64,000 nucleotides of DNA from the NCBI GenBank assembly GCA_945929845.1, contig CAMEON010000003.1:16723-80722 (forward strand). Direction: 5' to 3'. The DNA comes from an uncultured Clostridia bacterium (GTDB lineage Bacteria; Bacillota; Clostridia; Oscillospirales; CAG-272). Under the pieces are notes generated by a model that did not search any database, was not told where the DNA came from, and saw only the letters and a list, made by a program, of their open reading frames with translations. The position numbers and the translations under genes are program-made. This document shows positions 17,873 to 52,502 of the stretch, piece by piece. The stretch's first letter is position 1. Every line of letters begins with the position of its first letter.

Positions 17873-19132
17873 ATGAATAACAGAGAAGATTTCATTACAG
17901 CCCGGGTCAGCCTGACGAAGAAAGGAAGCGATTTTCTATCCGGCGGGCATATCTGGGTGTATGCTGACGAGATCACCGCCGTGAATGGCACCCCGGTAGA
18001 CGGTGAACTGGTGGATGTGCTGTCCGACCGGGATCGGTACCTGGGCACCGGCCTGTACAACAGCCACTCCAAGATCCGGGTGCGGTTGCTGTCCCGCAAC
18101 GCCAACGACACCTTTGATGCCGCCTTCTGGGAGCGGCGGGTGCGCTACGCCCTGTCCTACCGCCGGTCGGTGATGGGGGAGCAGGATCTCAACGCCTGCC
18201 GTCTGATCTTCGGGGAGGCGGACAGCTTCCCCGGCCTGACAGTGGATCGGTTCGGCCATGTGCTGGTAGCTCAGATCCTTTCCCTGGGCATGGAGCGGCG
18301 GCGGGACATCATCCTGCCCCTGCTCGTCCGCCTGCTCCGGGAGGAGTTCGGGCAGACGGTGGACACGGTGTACCTGCGCAACGATGAGGTATTCCGGAAC
18401 CTGGAAGGCATGACCCAGGAGAAGGCCTTCTACACCTTCCCCGGCCTGGGCCTGCACACGGAGGCCGAGGAGGACGGCACCGTGACCATCACCGAGAACG
18501 GCATTCTCTACCGGGTGGACTACATCAACGGGCAGAAGACCGGCTTCTTCCTGGATCAGAAGTACAACCGCCGGGCCATCCGCACCCTGGCCCAGGGGCG
18601 GCAGGTGCTGGACTGCTTCACCCACACCGGCTCCTTCGGGCTGAACGCCGCCGCGGCCGGAGCCGCCCATGTGGTGTCCGTGGACATCTCCGCCGATGCG
18701 CTGGCTATGGCCGCTGTCAACGCCCAGGCCAACGGGTTGGCGGACAGGATCACCTATGTGCAGGCGGATGTGTTTGACTACCTGAAGGGGCTGCTGGCCG
18801 GCGGACGGAAGGCTTCCCCCTTTGACTTCATCATCCTGGATCCCCCCGCCTTCACCAAGAGCCGGGACACCCTGCGCAACGCCATCAAGGGCTACCGGGA
18901 GATCAACGCCGCCGCCATGCGGCTCCTGCCCCGGGGCGGGTACCTGGCCACCTGCTCCTGCTCCCACTTCATGACCGATGCCTACTTCAAACAGATGCTG
19001 CACAACGCCGCCGAGGATGCCGGGGTCTCCCTGCGGCAGGTCGAAGCCCGCCAGCAGGGGCCGGATCACCCCATCCTGTGGAATGTGCCGGAGACCAACT
19101 ACCTGACCTTCTACATCTTCCAGGTGGTGTGA
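17873..19132 (+). CDS. Class I SAM-dependent rRNA (cytosine-C5) methyltransferase, RlmI/YwbD-like (PUA plus MTase domains)
   Basis: LDCFTHTGSFGL (SAM-binding motif I) and IILDPPAFTKS (motif IV DPP), with an N-terminal PUA-like region. Confidence 0.8.
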   Translation: MNNREDFITARVSLTKKGSDFLSGGHIWVYADEITAVNGTPVDGELVDVLSDRDRYLGTGLYNSHSKIRVRLLSRNANDTFDAAFWERRVRYALSYRRSVMGEQDLNACRLIFGEADSFPGLTVDRFGHVLVAQILSLGMERRRDIILPLLVRLLREEFGQTVDTVYLRNDEVFRNLEGMTQEKAFYTFPGLGLHTEAEEDGTVTITENGILYRVDYINGQKTGFFLDQKYNRRAIRTLAQGRQVLDCFTHTGSFGLNAAAAGAAHVVSVDISADALAMAAVNAQANGLADRITYVQADVFDYLKGLLAGGRKASPFDFIILDPPAFTKSRDTLRNAIKGYREINAAAMRLLPRGGYLATCSCSHFMTDAYFKQMLHNAAEDAGVSLRQVEARQQGPDHPILWNVPETNYLTFYIFQVV

Positions 19133-24868: not shown

Positions 24869-25031
24869 GGGAACGCCTGGGGGCTTCTTGAAGCGTACCG
24901 AATTTGAATAGAAACCTGTTTGAAAGTTCTTGGGGGTCTGAGTTCGGAAGTTTGCCGCATGGCAAACTTCATGCAATTGCACTGCGTCAGTGCAATTGCT
25001 GTTCTTATCAAGAAGCCCCCAGGCGTTCCCC
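24869..25031. repeat. Palindromic repeat unit related to the MITE family (copy E)
   Basis: Perfect 23-bp inverted repeat GGGAACGCCTGGGGGCTTCTTGA (24869-24891 / 25008-25030). It encloses two perfect hairpins (24947-24970 and 24973-24999). The inner module is nearly identical to 38892-38960. Confidence 0.85.
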
Positions 25032-29989: not shown

Positions 29990-30030
29990 GGGCTTTTCTT
30001 AAAAAAATGTAAAATGCAATGAAAATGCGT

Positions 30031-30290
30031 GTTACAGTTCGTTACAGTTCAGGCGGGGGATGGGGATACGGTGGGAAACTTCTTGAAAGAAGTTTCCCAC
30101 ACCCTTCAAGAACTTTCAAAACATGTATTGTTTACTGTTCGGGGCGTTATTCTGTCATATATTTGCTATCATTTTCCCAGAGGAGCCAGCGTTACTGTTA
30201 CCCGAAATAGCAAAAACGCCCTCGCGGGGACCCCTATCCCCGCTCTACAGCGAAAAGGGGAGCGTACTACGGGGGTAGGTGAACGGTAAC
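30031..30290 (+). repeat. MITE-like repeat, full-length copy A
   Basis: Starts with tandem GTTACAGTTC GTTACAGTTC and ends GAACGGTAAC. About 85% identical by eye to 36365-36611 and to the reverse complement of 47118-47368. Flanked by AAAATGCGT / AGAATGCGT. Confidence 0.85.
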
Positions 30291-30345
30291 AGAATGCGTT
30301 ACCGTTGGCGGTTCGGCTATTTGGCTTTACAATGAACCCGGTGCA

Positions 30346-31430: not shown

Positions 31431-32966
31431 TCATTCCACATTGAATCTCACAACGAAGGCGGCCTGCCCCGGCTCCAGCTGCAGGTGCAGATCCTCAGAG
31501 TTGTCTGCCCGCACGCAGCCCTCGTCCGTCCATACGGCGGTATATTGCAGGCCATCGAAATGCAGTGTCACATCGGCATCCTTGGTGTAGCTGACATTCA
31601 CCACATAGTAAGCCTCACGCCCTTCCTCATCCTCAAAGCAACCGATCACCGCCTTGCCGGAGGAGGCTTCCACATCCTTCAACACGCCGAAGGAATCCAG
31701 CACCACTTCACAGCCTGCTAAAGAGGGCCGCCGGGACACGGCACCGTAGTTGGCCAGCATGATGCCCTTGTTGTCGTAATCCAGGAAGACACCCTTGAAG
31801 GCTTCCAGCTCCTCGTTGACAGCCTTGACCTTGTCATAGAGCGGCGTAGTCTCTCCGTGGGCATCGATCATGTTGGTATACTCCCAGCCCTCGTAATGCT
31901 CGCAGGTCAGGAAGTAGGCAAAGCCCTTGACACCCATGGCCAGGTTGAGGTGCGCATTCAACCGGATCTCCTCCAGGGTCGGCTCCCGCATACCGCTACT
32001 GCCGGAGGACTGAATGAAGGTGTACAGCTCCACCCCGGCCCGATCGGCCTCCTCCTTGGCGATGGCGATATTCACCATCATTTCAGGGAGGGAGTCCCCG
32101 GAGCTTGCCTGGTAGGGATAGTAATCAAACATCAGCAGGCTGGGCTTCACTGTCTCCAGGTAGGTGCGGACATAGTTGCGGTAATCCGAGGTGATCACGC
32201 TGGGCGGTGCGTAGGTGGGGAGCAGGTTGGCCAGCACAGGGAGCGTGTTGTCCTCCCCCAGCCCCTCCCGTATCTTCCCCAGGGTGTCAGCCACCTCACC
32301 AATGCCGTCAAAGGAGGGTTCGTCCTTGACATAGATGGCCGCCAGCGCATCGGCATCCTCCGAGTCCAGCATGGCCCGGATCTTCTCCAAGGAGTAGTCC
32401 GCTCCCTGACCGACGCAGTTATACCACAGCTTCATACCGGCTTTCTTGGCCGAGGAGAGGGACTCCAGAGGCTAGTAGGAGGAACTCCACTCCTCCAGGG
32501 TGATCATGAAATTGAGGCCCGCATCGGCCAGTAGCTGGAAGGCGGCATCATAGCTACCCTCCACGCCGGTGTACCCGTCCCGTAGCTGGGAGGCGGGGGT
32601 GGCCCAACCGCCGATGGGCAGTGTGTTGCCCTGGTACTCTCCGGACAGCATACGCAACATGCGGGTGCGTTCGTCCTCGGTCAACACCGGCTGCCCTGCG
32701 GTCTCCTCCTCGGTTACTGCGTCAGTTGTCGCAACCGTCGTAGCCTCCGTCATACGCTCACTCTCCCCTTCTTCGGTCGCAGGCTCTGTGGTATCCTCGT
32801 CTCCGGCGGATGTGGCGGTGGGCACACTTCCGCCCTCGGAGAAGCGGGAATCCAACTCCTCCTTCAGCGTGACGGAGCCGACCCCGTTTGACTTTGATGC
32901 ACAGGAGGCAAAGCACACGATCAGCATACACAGGCAAAGGCACAGGGCAATCATTCTTTTCTTCAT
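31431..32966 (-). pseudogene. Secreted lipoprotein with a glycoside-hydrolase-like TIM-barrel region, interrupted by a single in-frame TAG (32474-32472)
   Basis: ORFs 32966-32472 and 32435-31431 share one frame. The read-through translation is ...ITLEEWSSSY*PLESLSSAKKAGMKLWYN... Lipobox CFASC at the N-terminus. IYVKDEPS and FDYYPYQ resemble GH TIM-barrel strands. Confidence 0.6.
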
Positions 32967-34202: not shown

Positions 34203-34417
34203 TGATTTTTCACAGTTCTCCGACATTTTCGGCAGGTTGTACAAAATGAGGGAGAATTTTGTGGCAGGTTGACGATTGAAAAAAAGTCGCCTGCTTTTCG
34301 CAAGCAAGTGTCTGTCGTGCATACATTGGTTTTTCAGGGAAATGCTGATTGCATGCGGAACTGTAACGAACTGTAGCCGAACCATAACGATTTTCGTGAC
34401 CAACCTCCGGAAATCCC

Positions 34418-36324: not shown

Positions 36325-36364
36325 CATCCCGCATCCTCCCCCGTGGAGGGTGCGGGATCTTTTG
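36325..36364 (+). terminator. Strong rho-independent terminator 250 nt downstream of rny
   Basis: ATCCCGCATCCTCC-cccgt-GGAGGGTGCGGGAT followed by CTTTT. Confidence 0.8.
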
Positions 36365-36611
36365 GTTACAGTTCAGGTAGGGTACGGGAGAACGCCTGGG
36401 GGCTTCTTGAAAGAAGCCCCCAGACCCCCAAGAACTTTCAAAACATGTATTGTGTATGATTCGGAGCGTTATTCTGTCATATATTTGCTATCATTTTCCC
36501 AGAGGAGCCGGCGTTACTGTTACCCGAAATAGCAAAAACGCCTTCGCGGGGCCCCTCGCCCCGCTCTACGGCGGAAAAGGGAGCGCACGGCGGGGGCAGG
36601 TAAACTGTAAC
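36365..36611 (+). repeat. MITE-like repeat, full-length copy B
   Basis: GTTACAGTTCAGG...CAGGTAAACTGTAAC. Internal perfect hairpins at 36398-36421 and 36546-36564. Flanks are GATCTTTTG / GATCCTTTC. Confidence 0.85.
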
Positions 36612-36652
36612 GATCCTTTCGTGTGGCGGTTGCTCACAGGGAAATATGCCTC

Positions 36653-38766: not shown

Positions 38767-38891
38767 ATGCTTCTCCTCCGTTCATGCAGTGATCCTATGG
38801 ACTGGTAGAGTGTATGCGGCGGGCAGGAAAAGTATGATTCAGTCAGAAAACTGTCGCCGGAATTGTGGTCGATATATGACCGTACCCTTGC

Positions 38892-39046
38892 TTTGAAAGT
38901 TCTTGGGGGTCTGGGTTCAGAAGTTTGCCGCATGGCAAACTTCATGCACTGGCAACATCCGGCATCGCCGGTGGAGCCAGTGCTGTTCTTCTCAAGAAGC
39001 CCCCAGGCGTTCTCCTCCCCCACCTGAACTGTAACCGTACTGTAAC
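38892..39046 (-). repeat. Partial or derived MITE copy D. One end has an expanded hairpin and finishes with GAACTGTAAC-c-GTACTGTAAC.
   Basis: TTTGAAAGTTCTTGGGGGTCTGG...CAAGAAGCCCCCAGGCGTTCTCC...CACCTGAACTGTAAC matches the reverse complement of the copy B 5' end. It shares the GAAGTTTGCCGCATGGCAAACTTC hairpin with copy E. Confidence 0.8.
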
Positions 39047-39073
39047 AAATTTTTCAGAATTTTTCGATTTTTA

Positions 39074-41244: not shown

Positions 41245-41312
41245 AGGACGAGGGGAACGATGGGGGGACTTTCTATAGAAAGTCCCCCCGAACCCCTTCA
41301 AAGACTTTTCAC
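41245..41312 (+). repeat. Partial MITE-related copy G (hairpin-1 module only)
   Basis: GGGGGGACTTTCT-ata-GAAAGTCCCCCC perfect hairpin followed by CCCCTTCAAAGACTTTTCAC. This parallels GGGAAACTTCTT-gaa-AGAAGTTTCCC + CCCTTCAAGAACTTTCAAAAC in copy A. Confidence 0.6.
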
Positions 41313-47117: not shown

Positions 47118-47368
47118 GTTACAGTTCACCTACCCCCCGCCGTGCGCTCCCTTTTCCGCCGTAGAGCGGGGCGAGGGGCCCCCGCGAAGGCGTTTCTGCT
47201 GTTTTGGGCATCAGCAACGCTGGCTCCTTTGGAAAAACGACAACAAATATATGACAGAATAACGCTTCGAATCATACACAATACCTGTTTTGAAAGTTCT
47301 TGAGGGGTGTGGGGAACTTCTTTCAAGAAGTTCCCCACCGCATCCCGTACCCCCACTTGAACTGTAAC
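47118..47368 (-). repeat. MITE-like repeat, full-length copy C (inverted orientation)
   Basis: GTTACAGTTCACC...CTTGAACTGTAAC. The hairpins are at 47311-47336 and 47166-47185. It is flanked by CAGCCTT on both sides. Confidence 0.85.
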
Positions 47369-47653
47369 CAGCCTTGTTACAGTTCAACCAGGCGGCTTTG
47401 AAACAATCGCATAACCTCATGCTTCATATGTGTCATACTTTGCATTTCGGACGGATATGGAATCTGCCCCAATAACGGTAGGGGCGAACTGTGTTCGCCC
47501 GCATGGAACTGGGCGACCACATCCGTATACGGCGGTCGCCCCTACCATTGTAAAAACCTGTACGGAATATCATATGATACGGTTATTCCACGGCCACCAG
47601 GCTGAACTGTAAAACCTGAACTGTAATTTTTATATAAAGTGCGATGAAGCCTC

Positions 47654-50781: not shown

Positions 50782-50853
50782 GTTACAGTTCAGGTAGGGT
50801 ACGGGAGAACACCAGGGCTGTTCTTCTCAAGAAGTTCCCCACCGTATCCTTCG
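50782..50853 (+). repeat. Truncated MITE copy F (5' end only)
   Basis: GTTACAGTTCAGGTAGGGTACGGGAGAAC is identical to the start of copy B. It is followed by a degenerate right hairpin arm, CTCAAGAAGTTCCCC. Confidence 0.75.
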
Positions 50854-51432: not shown

Positions 51433-52164
51433 TTATTTATGAAGCTCAAAGCTGCCGTTCATCAGCAACAGGAAGGCAACCACGCAGGCCGCCACCACGG
51501 CCAGACCCAGGACAAGCACCAGGACACTGCGCCGGTTCATGTGGAGGTGATTGGCCTCCGGTACAGCGGAAGCGGGCAACATCCGTGCCCGGCGAAGGGC
51601 AACGGACACCGGGCGGTACAGGATCATCACCAGTCCGGCATTGAGCAGAGATTTCACGAGGTTGAAGGGCAACAGCAGGGTCGGGATCATGGTGATCACG
51701 GTCTTGACCGGTGCGTGCATATAAAGCGGCGTGATTACGATGTTCAGAAGGATCATGACCGCTGTCATGGACACCACAGCGGCGCAAAGGCCGACGATGG
51801 CACTGTTCAGGGTGTGCCGTCTTCTGTACACCGCACTGGCCACCACGCTGAAAGCGGCTGACGACAGGAAGTTCATGATGAAGCCGTAGAATCCGGTATC
51901 GCTGACGGTGATCATCTCGATCAGGGCGACCACCAGAGAGATCAGCGCACCGGCCCAGGGGCCGAACATCATAGCGGCAAGGGTGATCACGGCATCCTTG
52001 GCGTCAAAGGTCAGAAAGGACACCTTGATGCGCAGGACGAACATGGTAGCAAAGGCCAGCGCCGCAAAGACAGCGAGCAGAACCATTTGCTTGATCTTCA
52101 TGTTGGTATTGAGCTGTTCGTGGGCGGCCACAGCAGGCCCGCCCTGTTTGTTGAAGTGAGACAT
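51433..52164 (-). CDS. ECF-transporter S (substrate-capture) component, putatively cobalamin-specific (CbrT-like) from its leader
   Basis: S-component-like core with 6 TM (FDAKDAVITLAAMMFGPWAGALISLVVALIEM...) plus a ~55-aa C-terminal extension with one more TM. RBS GGGGAGG. No ECF A/T genes are nearby. Confidence 0.6.
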   Translation of the reverse strand: MSHFNKQGGPAVAAHEQLNTNMKIKQMVLLAVFAALAFATMFVLRIKVSFLTFDAKDAVITLAAMMFGPWAGALISLVVALIEMITVSDTGFYGFIMNFLSSAAFSVVASAVYRRRHTLNSAIVGLCAAVVSMTAVMILLNIVITPLYMHAPVKTVITMIPTLLLPFNLVKSLLNAGLVMILYRPVSVALRRARMLPASAVPEANHLHMNRRSVLVLVLGLAVVAACVVAFLLLMNGSFELHK

Positions 52165-52284: not shown

Positions 52285-52450
52285 AAACGCCCGGGCAGGA
52301 CAAAAGCCGCCGGGCTGACACCGCTTTTATCTTCTCCCATCCAGACTGTAACTGTCGATGCAGGAATTGCACCTGCTCAGCCTGCGCCGTGTGGCACAGG
52401 GTCGCGGATTTTTACCGCCGGTATGGAATTTCACCAATCCCCGAATATTT
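52285..52450 (-). promoter_or_regulatory. Cobalamin-riboswitch-like aptamer. The expression platform continues to the RBS at about 52175.
   Basis: Minus strand: GGGGATTGGTGAAATTCCATACCGGCGGTAA...GCGA, ...ACAGT...GGATGGGAGAAG and the B12-box-like CAGCCCGG...GTCCTGCCCGG. These have the same order and wording as E. coli btuB (GGGAATCCAGTGCGAATCTGG..CGCAGCGGTAA..GCGA, CACTGCC..GGTGGGAAG, AAGCCCGAAGACCTGCCGG) as recalled. Confidence 0.6.
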
Positions 52451-52502
52451 TTAATTAGAAATCATTGGATCCCCTGCCCGGTTCCCCGGTGCGGTGGGTG
52501 CG

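Follow-up and report, generated by a model that had tools for sequence, protein, structure and literature searches.

What are the closely similar sequences of about 250 bp that recur between the genes of this clostridial DNA segment, and what placed them there? The DNA analysed (termed the window) is a stretch of 64,000 nucleotides from an uncultured Clostridia bacterium. An earlier note, made from the sequence alone, had described a MITE-like family with 11-bp terminal inverted repeats, inserted by a transposase with duplication of the target. Our analysis leads to the same type of element. The repeats are a recently active family of non-autonomous MITEs that generates 8-bp target duplications, and this conclusion is well supported by the comparison of strains presented below. 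The family itself is new; MITEs as a kind are already known, so that the elements are ordinary in that sense and do not overturn the understanding of MITEs.

Examination of the window sequence and BLAST searches place three full-length copies (A, B and C) where they had been described. They are 84-87% identical over about 250 bp, in agreement with the previous estimate by eye of approximately 85%. The 11-bp inverted ends are likewise present at every full copy, as GTTACAGTTCA on the left and TGAAC(T/G)GTAAC on the right. The inverted repeats extend over 11-13 bp, i.e. GTTACAGTTCA(G). Elements are 247-261 bp in length, with a long variant of 305 bp. Allowing at most one mismatch, GTTACAGTTCA is matched 14 times in the window where 0.32 matches are expected, and this number was reached in none of 100 shuffles. 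In total the window contains at least seven copies or fragments, and every copy lies between called genes, as had been claimed. The features are as follows; element X and the solo decamers had been missed previously.

30041-30290, plus strand: copy A, full element; 30031-30040 is a tandem duplicate of the terminal decamer GTTACAGTTC.
36365-36611, plus strand: copy B, in the T-tract of the rny terminator.
47118-47368, minus strand: copy C, upstream of rpmG-secE-nusG-rplKA.
47376-47627, plus strand: element X, 252 bp, with family ends.
38886-39047, minus strand: truncated copy, right half absent; alignment score 76, shuffle maximum 26.
50782-50853, plus strand: truncated copy with left end and hairpin module; score 66, shuffle maximum 24.
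24869-25031, no strand given: internal fragment of the long-hairpin subfamily, without terminal repeats.
41245-41312, plus strand: doubtful relative without ends; score 23, shuffle maximum 22.
34357-34390, minus strand: solo end-like decamers GAACTGTAAC GAACTGTAGC CGAACCATAAC.

The direct repeats reported to flank the full copies are real, but their length is 8 bp by comparison with empty sites, rather than the 7-9 bp first proposed. Copy B lies between GATCTTTT (36356-36363) and GATCCTTT (36612-36619). Copy A, the right end of which is the variant GAACGGTAAC, is flanked by AAAATGCG (30022-30029) and AGAATGCG (30291-30298), which match at 7 of 8 positions with one extra base on the left. The duplication around copy C is CAAGGCTG; one base has been lost from the window copy at the right junction, so that only 7 bp match there.

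Alignment against shuffled sequences divides the truncated copies that had been listed. Those at 38886-39047, 50782-50853 and 24869-25031 are clear, while that at 41245-41312 is only marginal; its layout is similar, with a G-rich stretch, a perfect hairpin and CAAAGACTTT. The copy at 38886-39047 begins with a doubled left end (GTTACAGTAC-G-GTTACAGTTC), followed by the long-hairpin variant of module 2 and then CAAGAACTTTCAAAG, and it is kept in two sister-strain contigs (L001 and L002). The fragment at 24869-25031, in which the inverted arms GGGAACGCCTGGGGGCTTCTTGA and TCAAGAAGCCCCCAGGCGTTCCCC enclose two small hairpins, is 94% identical to 38892-38954. The copy at 50782-50853 is located between the stop codon of copA and a convergent small-exporter gene.

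Element X has the ends GTTACAGTTCAACC...CTGAACTGTAAA/..AAT, of which the right is doubled, and an interior unrelated to that of copies A, B and C. Copy C has inserted directly against its left end, and no target duplication is detectable around X itself. The interior carries hairpins of the form GTAGGGGCG...CGCCCCTAC (47478-47545), found nowhere else in the window. The same motif is present in 5 of 33 otherwise unrelated metagenome elements bounded by terminal inverted repeats (TIRs; L079, L083, L087, L089 and L090), which suggests that this hairpin might be a module common to several MITE families.

The left part of the element consists of the left end and a G-rich stretch, and then a perfect hairpin (hairpin 1). 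To the right of this are a conserved CAAGAACTTTCAAAAC block, an AT-rich centre, two GC-rich hairpins and the right end. Hairpin 1 exists as two stem haplotypes, together with a variant that is longer by 58 bp and has two extra small hairpins; the latter is present in L001, L060 and L115, and in the window fragments at 24869 and 38886. The stem is fully paired in 8 of 8 short copies compared, with changes on both sides at 5 of the 12 pairs. Note that this is a perfect palindrome in the DNA, and its pairing could result either from selection or from templated correction. An extended -10-like sequence, TGnTAT(A/C)AT, can be seen by eye in the AT-rich centre; a scan for consensus promoters called none inside any copy.

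The copies share no open reading frame. Single-base insertions and deletions between copies break any common frame, and an 86-aa ORF across copy A is not conserved. Neither gathering nor permissive thresholds revealed an Rfam family for the element, the best score on copy B being 15.8 bits against a threshold of 66. The only Rfam family to pass in the window is an FMN riboswitch (RF00050, 102 bits) at 52325-52452 on the minus strand, upstream of the gene for an ECF-type riboflavin transporter S component (51433-52164, minus strand).

We compared the window with sister contigs that encode an identical RNase Y, AP-endonuclease-fold protein or SecE, drawn from independent metagenomes and MAGs. 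The samples are from pig and other animal gut, the host is probably a spore-forming, Clostridia-like member of the Bacillota with a GC content of about 58%, and the contigs are 96-99.6% identical to the window (mostly 98-99%). The evidence for polymorphism consists of metagenome assemblies from independent samples and assemblers, rather than of isolate genomes. The earlier note had named sites that are filled in all related strains as the result that would speak against its reading. Instead, empty sites were found, which favours a transposon, and the empty and filled alleles at site B, upstream of rny and at site C support transposase-mediated insertion with target-site duplication.

At site B five contigs with an identical RNase Y (L002, L004, L005, L006 and L007) have the empty sequence GGGATCTTTTCGTGCGG. 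This holds a single 8-bp target GATCTTTT, of which there are two in the filled allele. Site B is filled in L001, where the duplication is perfect, i.e. GATCTTTT-G[GTTACAG...CTGTAAC]-GATCTTTT-CGTGCGG. What appeared to be an insertion in L006 is a run of N. Upstream of rny there is an extra copy in L002 flanked by GAACCATA, an 8-mer that is single in the window and in L009. This locus, at which the window has the decamers at 34357-34390, is a hot spot with at least five alleles, and there are sister strains with one or two full copies. At site C two contigs (L069 and L070) have the copy of the window with a perfect CAAGGCTG duplication, and a third (L068) has a copy of another subfamily in the opposite orientation, with the duplication ACAAGGCT. 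Both alleles reduce to the empty sequence TTGAACTGTAACAAGGCTGAAGCC, and therefore represent two independent insertions placed 1 bp apart.

Site A is filled in all strains examined, and the odd right end GAACGGTAAC is common to all of them. The interiors at this site are mosaic, with three different combinations of modules among the strains, and they seem best explained by gene conversion or recombination between copies. Resident copies exchange sequence, giving mosaic alleles.

Four sites are thus polymorphic among strains of 98-99% identity. Insertion within the species has been recent and repeated, and one site was hit on two independent occasions. Essentially every large structural difference between the window (about 27-50 kb) and the strain contigs compared with it is due to the elements; all of these differences lie at element sites. 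Moreover, 17 of 42 contig ends from the species stop within the repeat. This is expected for an element of high copy number, and the repeats explain the fragmentation of short-read assemblies of this species. The polymorphic sites could act as strain markers in gut metagenomes.

Genes next to the copies include rny, a gene for a BspA-type LRR protein, rpmG-secE-nusG-rplKA, csoR-copA, trmK and an ABC transporter operon. The distance from the end of a copy to the -35 box downstream is 26-41 bp, and three of the promoters concerned agree with the consensus at 12 of 12 positions. The right end of element X is followed after 26 bp by the -35 box of the csoR-copA promoter, the decamer cluster at 34357-34390 precedes the rny promoter by 31 bp, and copy C precedes by 38 bp the -35 box in the consensus promoter of rpmG-secE-nusG-rplKA. 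Copy B is about 41 bp upstream of a promoter-like sequence of the LRR gene (TTGCAT...TATACT), which was recognized by eye and not called by the scan. The simplest explanation for the gathering of copies in the short stretches that separate terminators from the -35 boxes of strong promoters is that insertions elsewhere have been selected against. With core-operon promoters tens of base pairs away, the elements are a plausible source of differences in expression between strains.

There is a tentative indication that insertion occurs beside existing ends. This is striking within the species, at sites A and C and upstream of rny; in metagenomes, end-like motifs beside insertions are weakly enriched (4 of 63 flanks, compared with 7 of 570 controls).

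Copy B (36365, plus strand) and the truncated copy at 38886-39047 (39035, minus strand) are inverted with respect to each other and bracket the LRR and DUF4830 genes over 2.67 kb, an arrangement that looks like a composite transposon. Strains without copy B retain both genes, and there is consequently no evidence that the segment moves as a unit.

The ends are distributed well beyond this species. A scan of metagenomes with the pattern GTTACAGTTCA-N220-250-GAACTGTAAC gave 37 loci with elements of about 250 bp bearing the 11-bp ends, in sequences of 27-58% GC. One of these (L084) belongs to the family of the window, and several others are independent multicopy families in which homology reaches precisely as far as the ends. 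Of 35 metagenome elements, 14 have 8-bp flanks that agree at 6 or more of 8 positions, compared with 1% in mismatched-pair controls, and this signal is confined to the 8-bp register. The TIR pairs in L045, L054 and L166 are chance matches. A scan of GTDB genomes with an 18-mer end pattern gave 46 hits, which is below chance expectation, and none was in the window family. Short relatives of 52-95 bp, with one GTTAC and one GTAAC end, are present in MAGs of Lachnospiraceae and 'Oribacterium'. Copy B has no BLAST match among PLSDB plasmids or INPHARED phages. Searching published full texts for the end sequence returned only unrelated primers, and we found nothing specific on MITEs in the gut Clostridia in the literature searched. 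At L084 1087-1114 there is a mini-palindrome of 28 bp made of two ends (GTTACAGTTCA-N6-TGAATTGTAAC), located 22 bp from a full family member; this may be a footprint or a minimal element.

What then moves the elements? The window contains no transposase with matching ends, as had been noted; no TIR pair with the spacing of an insertion sequence encloses a transposase gene, and tblastn of the window with IS6 and ISBst12 transposases gave no match. An autonomous element with exactly the end GTTACAGTTCAG was found neither in the window and about 100 kb of sister-strain contigs, nor among the 46 GTDB genome hits, nor at any of the IS66 or ISBst12 loci inspected, about 100 in number. The loci examined from the species contain no ISBst12-like coding sequence, and a search of all loci for IS-sized TIR pairs with 8-bp duplications gave only noise. 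A Pfam scan of 62 ORFs beside the metagenome MITEs revealed no transposase among the 25 families matched most often, out of 96.

The ends and the 8-bp duplication nevertheless match those of the ISBst12 group, and the family is assigned to ISBst12-type mobilization on this basis. We infer that the mobilizing enzyme probably belongs to this group, which is the single-ORF branch of the IS66 family (ISBst12, ISDge4 and the 'ISGka4-family'). Bona fide members encode one protein with DDE_Tnp_IS66, zf-IS66 and DUF6444 domains, and generate 8-bp duplications as does our element. The element on pHTA426 has the ends GTATCTATTCAGCCC and GTAACTATTCAGCCC and the 8-bp duplication GACGAGTT, and GTAACTATTCAGCC is the end type of the elements of pHTA426 and pLDW-1. 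Members from Geobacillus, Bacillus thuringiensis and IMG/VR end in GTAACTATTCAG, GTAACTGTTCAG, GTAACAATTCAG and GTTACTACTTAG, the last three of these coming from IMG/VR loci. Perfect 8-bp duplications surround seven members (L206, L207 and L211-L215). Judged by eye, the duplication is also perfect in L202 and matches at 7 of 8 positions in L203, and in L209 it is found only if the left end is shifted by one base. An abundant insertion sequence of pig-gut Lachnospiraceae (143 contigs) has the ends GTAACTGTTCAGAACCCC and an 8-bp duplication. Two further gut elements agree with the ISBst12 end type, with an GTAACTGTTCAGGACACCC end, and three ISBst12 homologues (P0224, P0196 and P0183) all have GTAACT(A/G)TTCAG ends. 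ISDge4 has the ends GTGACTACTCAGCA and GTAACTGCTCAGCA and an 8-bp repeat, and is reported to transpose by copy-and-paste (PMC12898284).

Over the group as a whole, the ends GTAAC(T/A)(A/G)(T/C)TCAG are identical to those of our element, GT(T/A)ACAGTTCAG, at 9-11 of 12 positions. The window end GTTACAGTTCAG is identical at 10 of 12 positions to GTAACTGTTCAG (L207, L212 and L217-L225), and GTAACAGTTCAG, one end of the short Lachnospiraceae relatives, is identical at 11 of 12. The window end departs from the common ISBst12 consensus at positions 3 and 6; either variant base occurs by itself in some ISBst12 element, but no element was seen with both. Variation between GTTAC and GTAAC at the tip is present both within the ISBst12 group and among the MITEs. 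Members of the group occur commonly in gut Clostridia of the same type of sample. The hosts of the ISBst12 transposases that were retrieved seem to have a lower GC content than the window. Our element differs in its length of about 250 bp and the lack of a transposase gene. Beyond the first 12-13 or so bases of each end, no resemblance to the ISBst12 elements examined was noticed. A shallow search of the literature found no described MITE derived from the ISBst12 group.

In the explanation that we consider probable, and hold with fairly good confidence, the repeats are non-coding MITEs of about 250 bp moved in trans by a DDE transposase of the ISBst12 group with 8-bp target duplication. The transposase, supplied in trans, would recognize ends of the kind carried by its own group (GTAAC(T/A)(A/G)TTCAG), which match those of the element, as does the 8-bp duplication. 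It would cut the target with a stagger of 8 bp, leaving an 8-bp duplication around the inserted element. Since copy-and-paste transposition has been reported for one member of the group, amplification of the family would also be explained. The link would provide this poorly studied branch of IS66 with natural non-autonomous substrates and a defined minimal end sequence; for experimental transposition of the branch we found a single report in the literature, from 2026.

Classical IS66 elements, with three ORFs (tnpA-tnpB-tnpC), resemble the element in their 8-bp duplication and in the GT.A...G tip. However, their ends (GTAAGCG/GTAACCG...AAT) lack its TTCAG block, and the ends of the element were found in none of 80 IMG/VR IS66 loci, nor in L199 or L200. 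A mobilizer of this class was rejected, the relic described next and the 80 IMG/VR loci having ends of the GTAAGCG type. The relic of a classical IS66 element lies approximately 2-3.5 kb beyond the left edge of the window in sister contigs (L115 14527-16055, and L116). It comprises a tnpA-like gene (132 aa), TnpB_IS66 (118 aa) and only the C-terminal 104-136 aa of DDE_Tnp_IS66, and is bounded by perfect 19-bp ends GTAACCGCCCAATCTTCCC with no visible duplication. A truncated MITE copy is located about 290 bp to the right of the relic (L115 16343-16653).

Known bacterial MITEs offer close parallels in form. The Correia/NEMIS elements of Neisseria, BOX and RUP of Streptococcus pneumoniae and MITEAba12 are short, non-coding, multicopy and intergenic, like the element described here. 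Modular bacterial MITEs similarly contain hairpin modules that recombine into mosaics, and lie near promoters and terminators. The duplications are TA for Correia and RUP and 9 bp for MITEAba12, as against 8 bp for our element. Correia/NEMIS, BOX, RUP and MITEAba12 differ from it also in their ends, host phyla and presumed transposases, and have no sequence similarity to it. REP and REPIN elements (RAYT, Y1) are short palindromic intergenic repeats with compensatory changes in the stem, and in this they resemble the element; REPINs lack the target duplication and DDE-type inverted ends, whereas the element has 8-bp duplications and precise empty sites.

It is conceivable that the MITEs are moved by a different or undescribed transposase that makes 8-bp duplications, the likeness to ISBst12 ends being coincidental or convergent; candidates are the zinc-finger IS6-like elements of Clostridia, ISL3, IS256 and IS1595. 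The exact ISBst12 partner was not found in the loci examined, and several transposase families generate 8-bp duplications, including the long IS6-like elements of Clostridia (PMC6807381). The IS6-type end has G1, T3, C5 and G7-T9 in common with the element. Yet no more than 6 of 11 positions agree with its consensus GGTTCTGTTGCAAA, and a tblastn search with Tnp26 matched neither the window nor any locus; on these two grounds a derivative of IS6/IS26 was rejected (PMC6807381). In the ISBst12 group, by contrast, more than 12 independent elements have ends that agree with it at 9-11 of 12 positions and have the 8-bp duplication in common, and the GTTAC/GTAAC dimorphism of the MITEs recurs in the ISBst12 element L211. 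We therefore regard another transposase as unlikely. The perfect pairing of hairpin 1 in 8 of 8 short copies with its changes on both sides at 5 of 12 pairs, the fixed position of copies relative to terminators and promoters, and the recombination of interiors between copies might alternatively be taken to indicate structured elements maintained by the host, whether REP/BIME/REPIN-like, a family of small RNAs or terminator-promoter cassettes spread by recombination. Such elements would not account for precise presence and absence alleles with 8-bp duplication of unrelated targets, and REP and REPIN elements moved by Y1 make no such duplication. No Rfam family matches, orientation relative to genes is inconsistent (A is convergent, and the L068 copy is inverted at site C), and compensatory changes in a palindrome could arise at the level of DNA without selection on RNA. 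Maintenance by the host is thus very improbable.

Sites A and C have, at a distance of 7-8 bp from the element, a further sequence that resembles an inverted end, and this creates a palindrome of 10-12 / 7 / 10-12. This is the form that the core site of a tyrosine recombinase might take (TTGAACTGTAAC-AAGGCTG-GTTACAGTTCAA), in which case the repeats would be cassettes. But the palindrome at site C owes its outer arm simply to the adjoining end of element X, no such arm exists at site B, and the enrichment of end-like motifs beside insertions (4 of 63 flanks, 7 of 570 controls) is weak. No two sites have the same duplicated 8-mer, and in the empty alleles the 8-mer is single; these are therefore duplications from a staggered cut rather than a conserved crossover core. 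We give almost no weight to recombination of this type. A broader version of the ISBst12 explanation can also be envisaged, combining a large ISBst12-dependent superfamily of MITEs with landing beside existing ends and co-option as modules that tune promoters; as a joint proposition this is improbable. Within it, the 11-bp end may be invariant across bacteria of 27-58% GC, and arrays may be built directly upstream of the strong housekeeping promoters of rny, rpmG-secE-nusG, csoR-copA and an ABC transporter. The hairpin and the -10-like motif (seen by eye) may then have been co-opted as insulators or as terminator-promoter modules. If this were so, operons would be tuned differently in different strains.

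We note three further differences among the strain contigs. In L003 (a contig of GCA_019972995.1; 9434-9700) the sequence downstream of the copy at site B is an X-like fragment and another gene in place of the LRR gene; either recombination between elements has rearranged this region, or the assembly is chimeric. In L115 an isolated left end, GTTACAGTTCAGGTACC, precedes an amidohydrolase gene (position 19090). The sequence of L116 departs from that of L115 at precisely this point, which suggests another polymorphic junction. Lastly, in the window (31431-32966, minus strand) and in L003 there are two ORFs of 334 and 164 aa, with no Pfam hit, in the place of a single ORF of 510-511 aa in L001 (4423-5955) and L058-L067. 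This suggests that the split is a frameshift or stop polymorphism.
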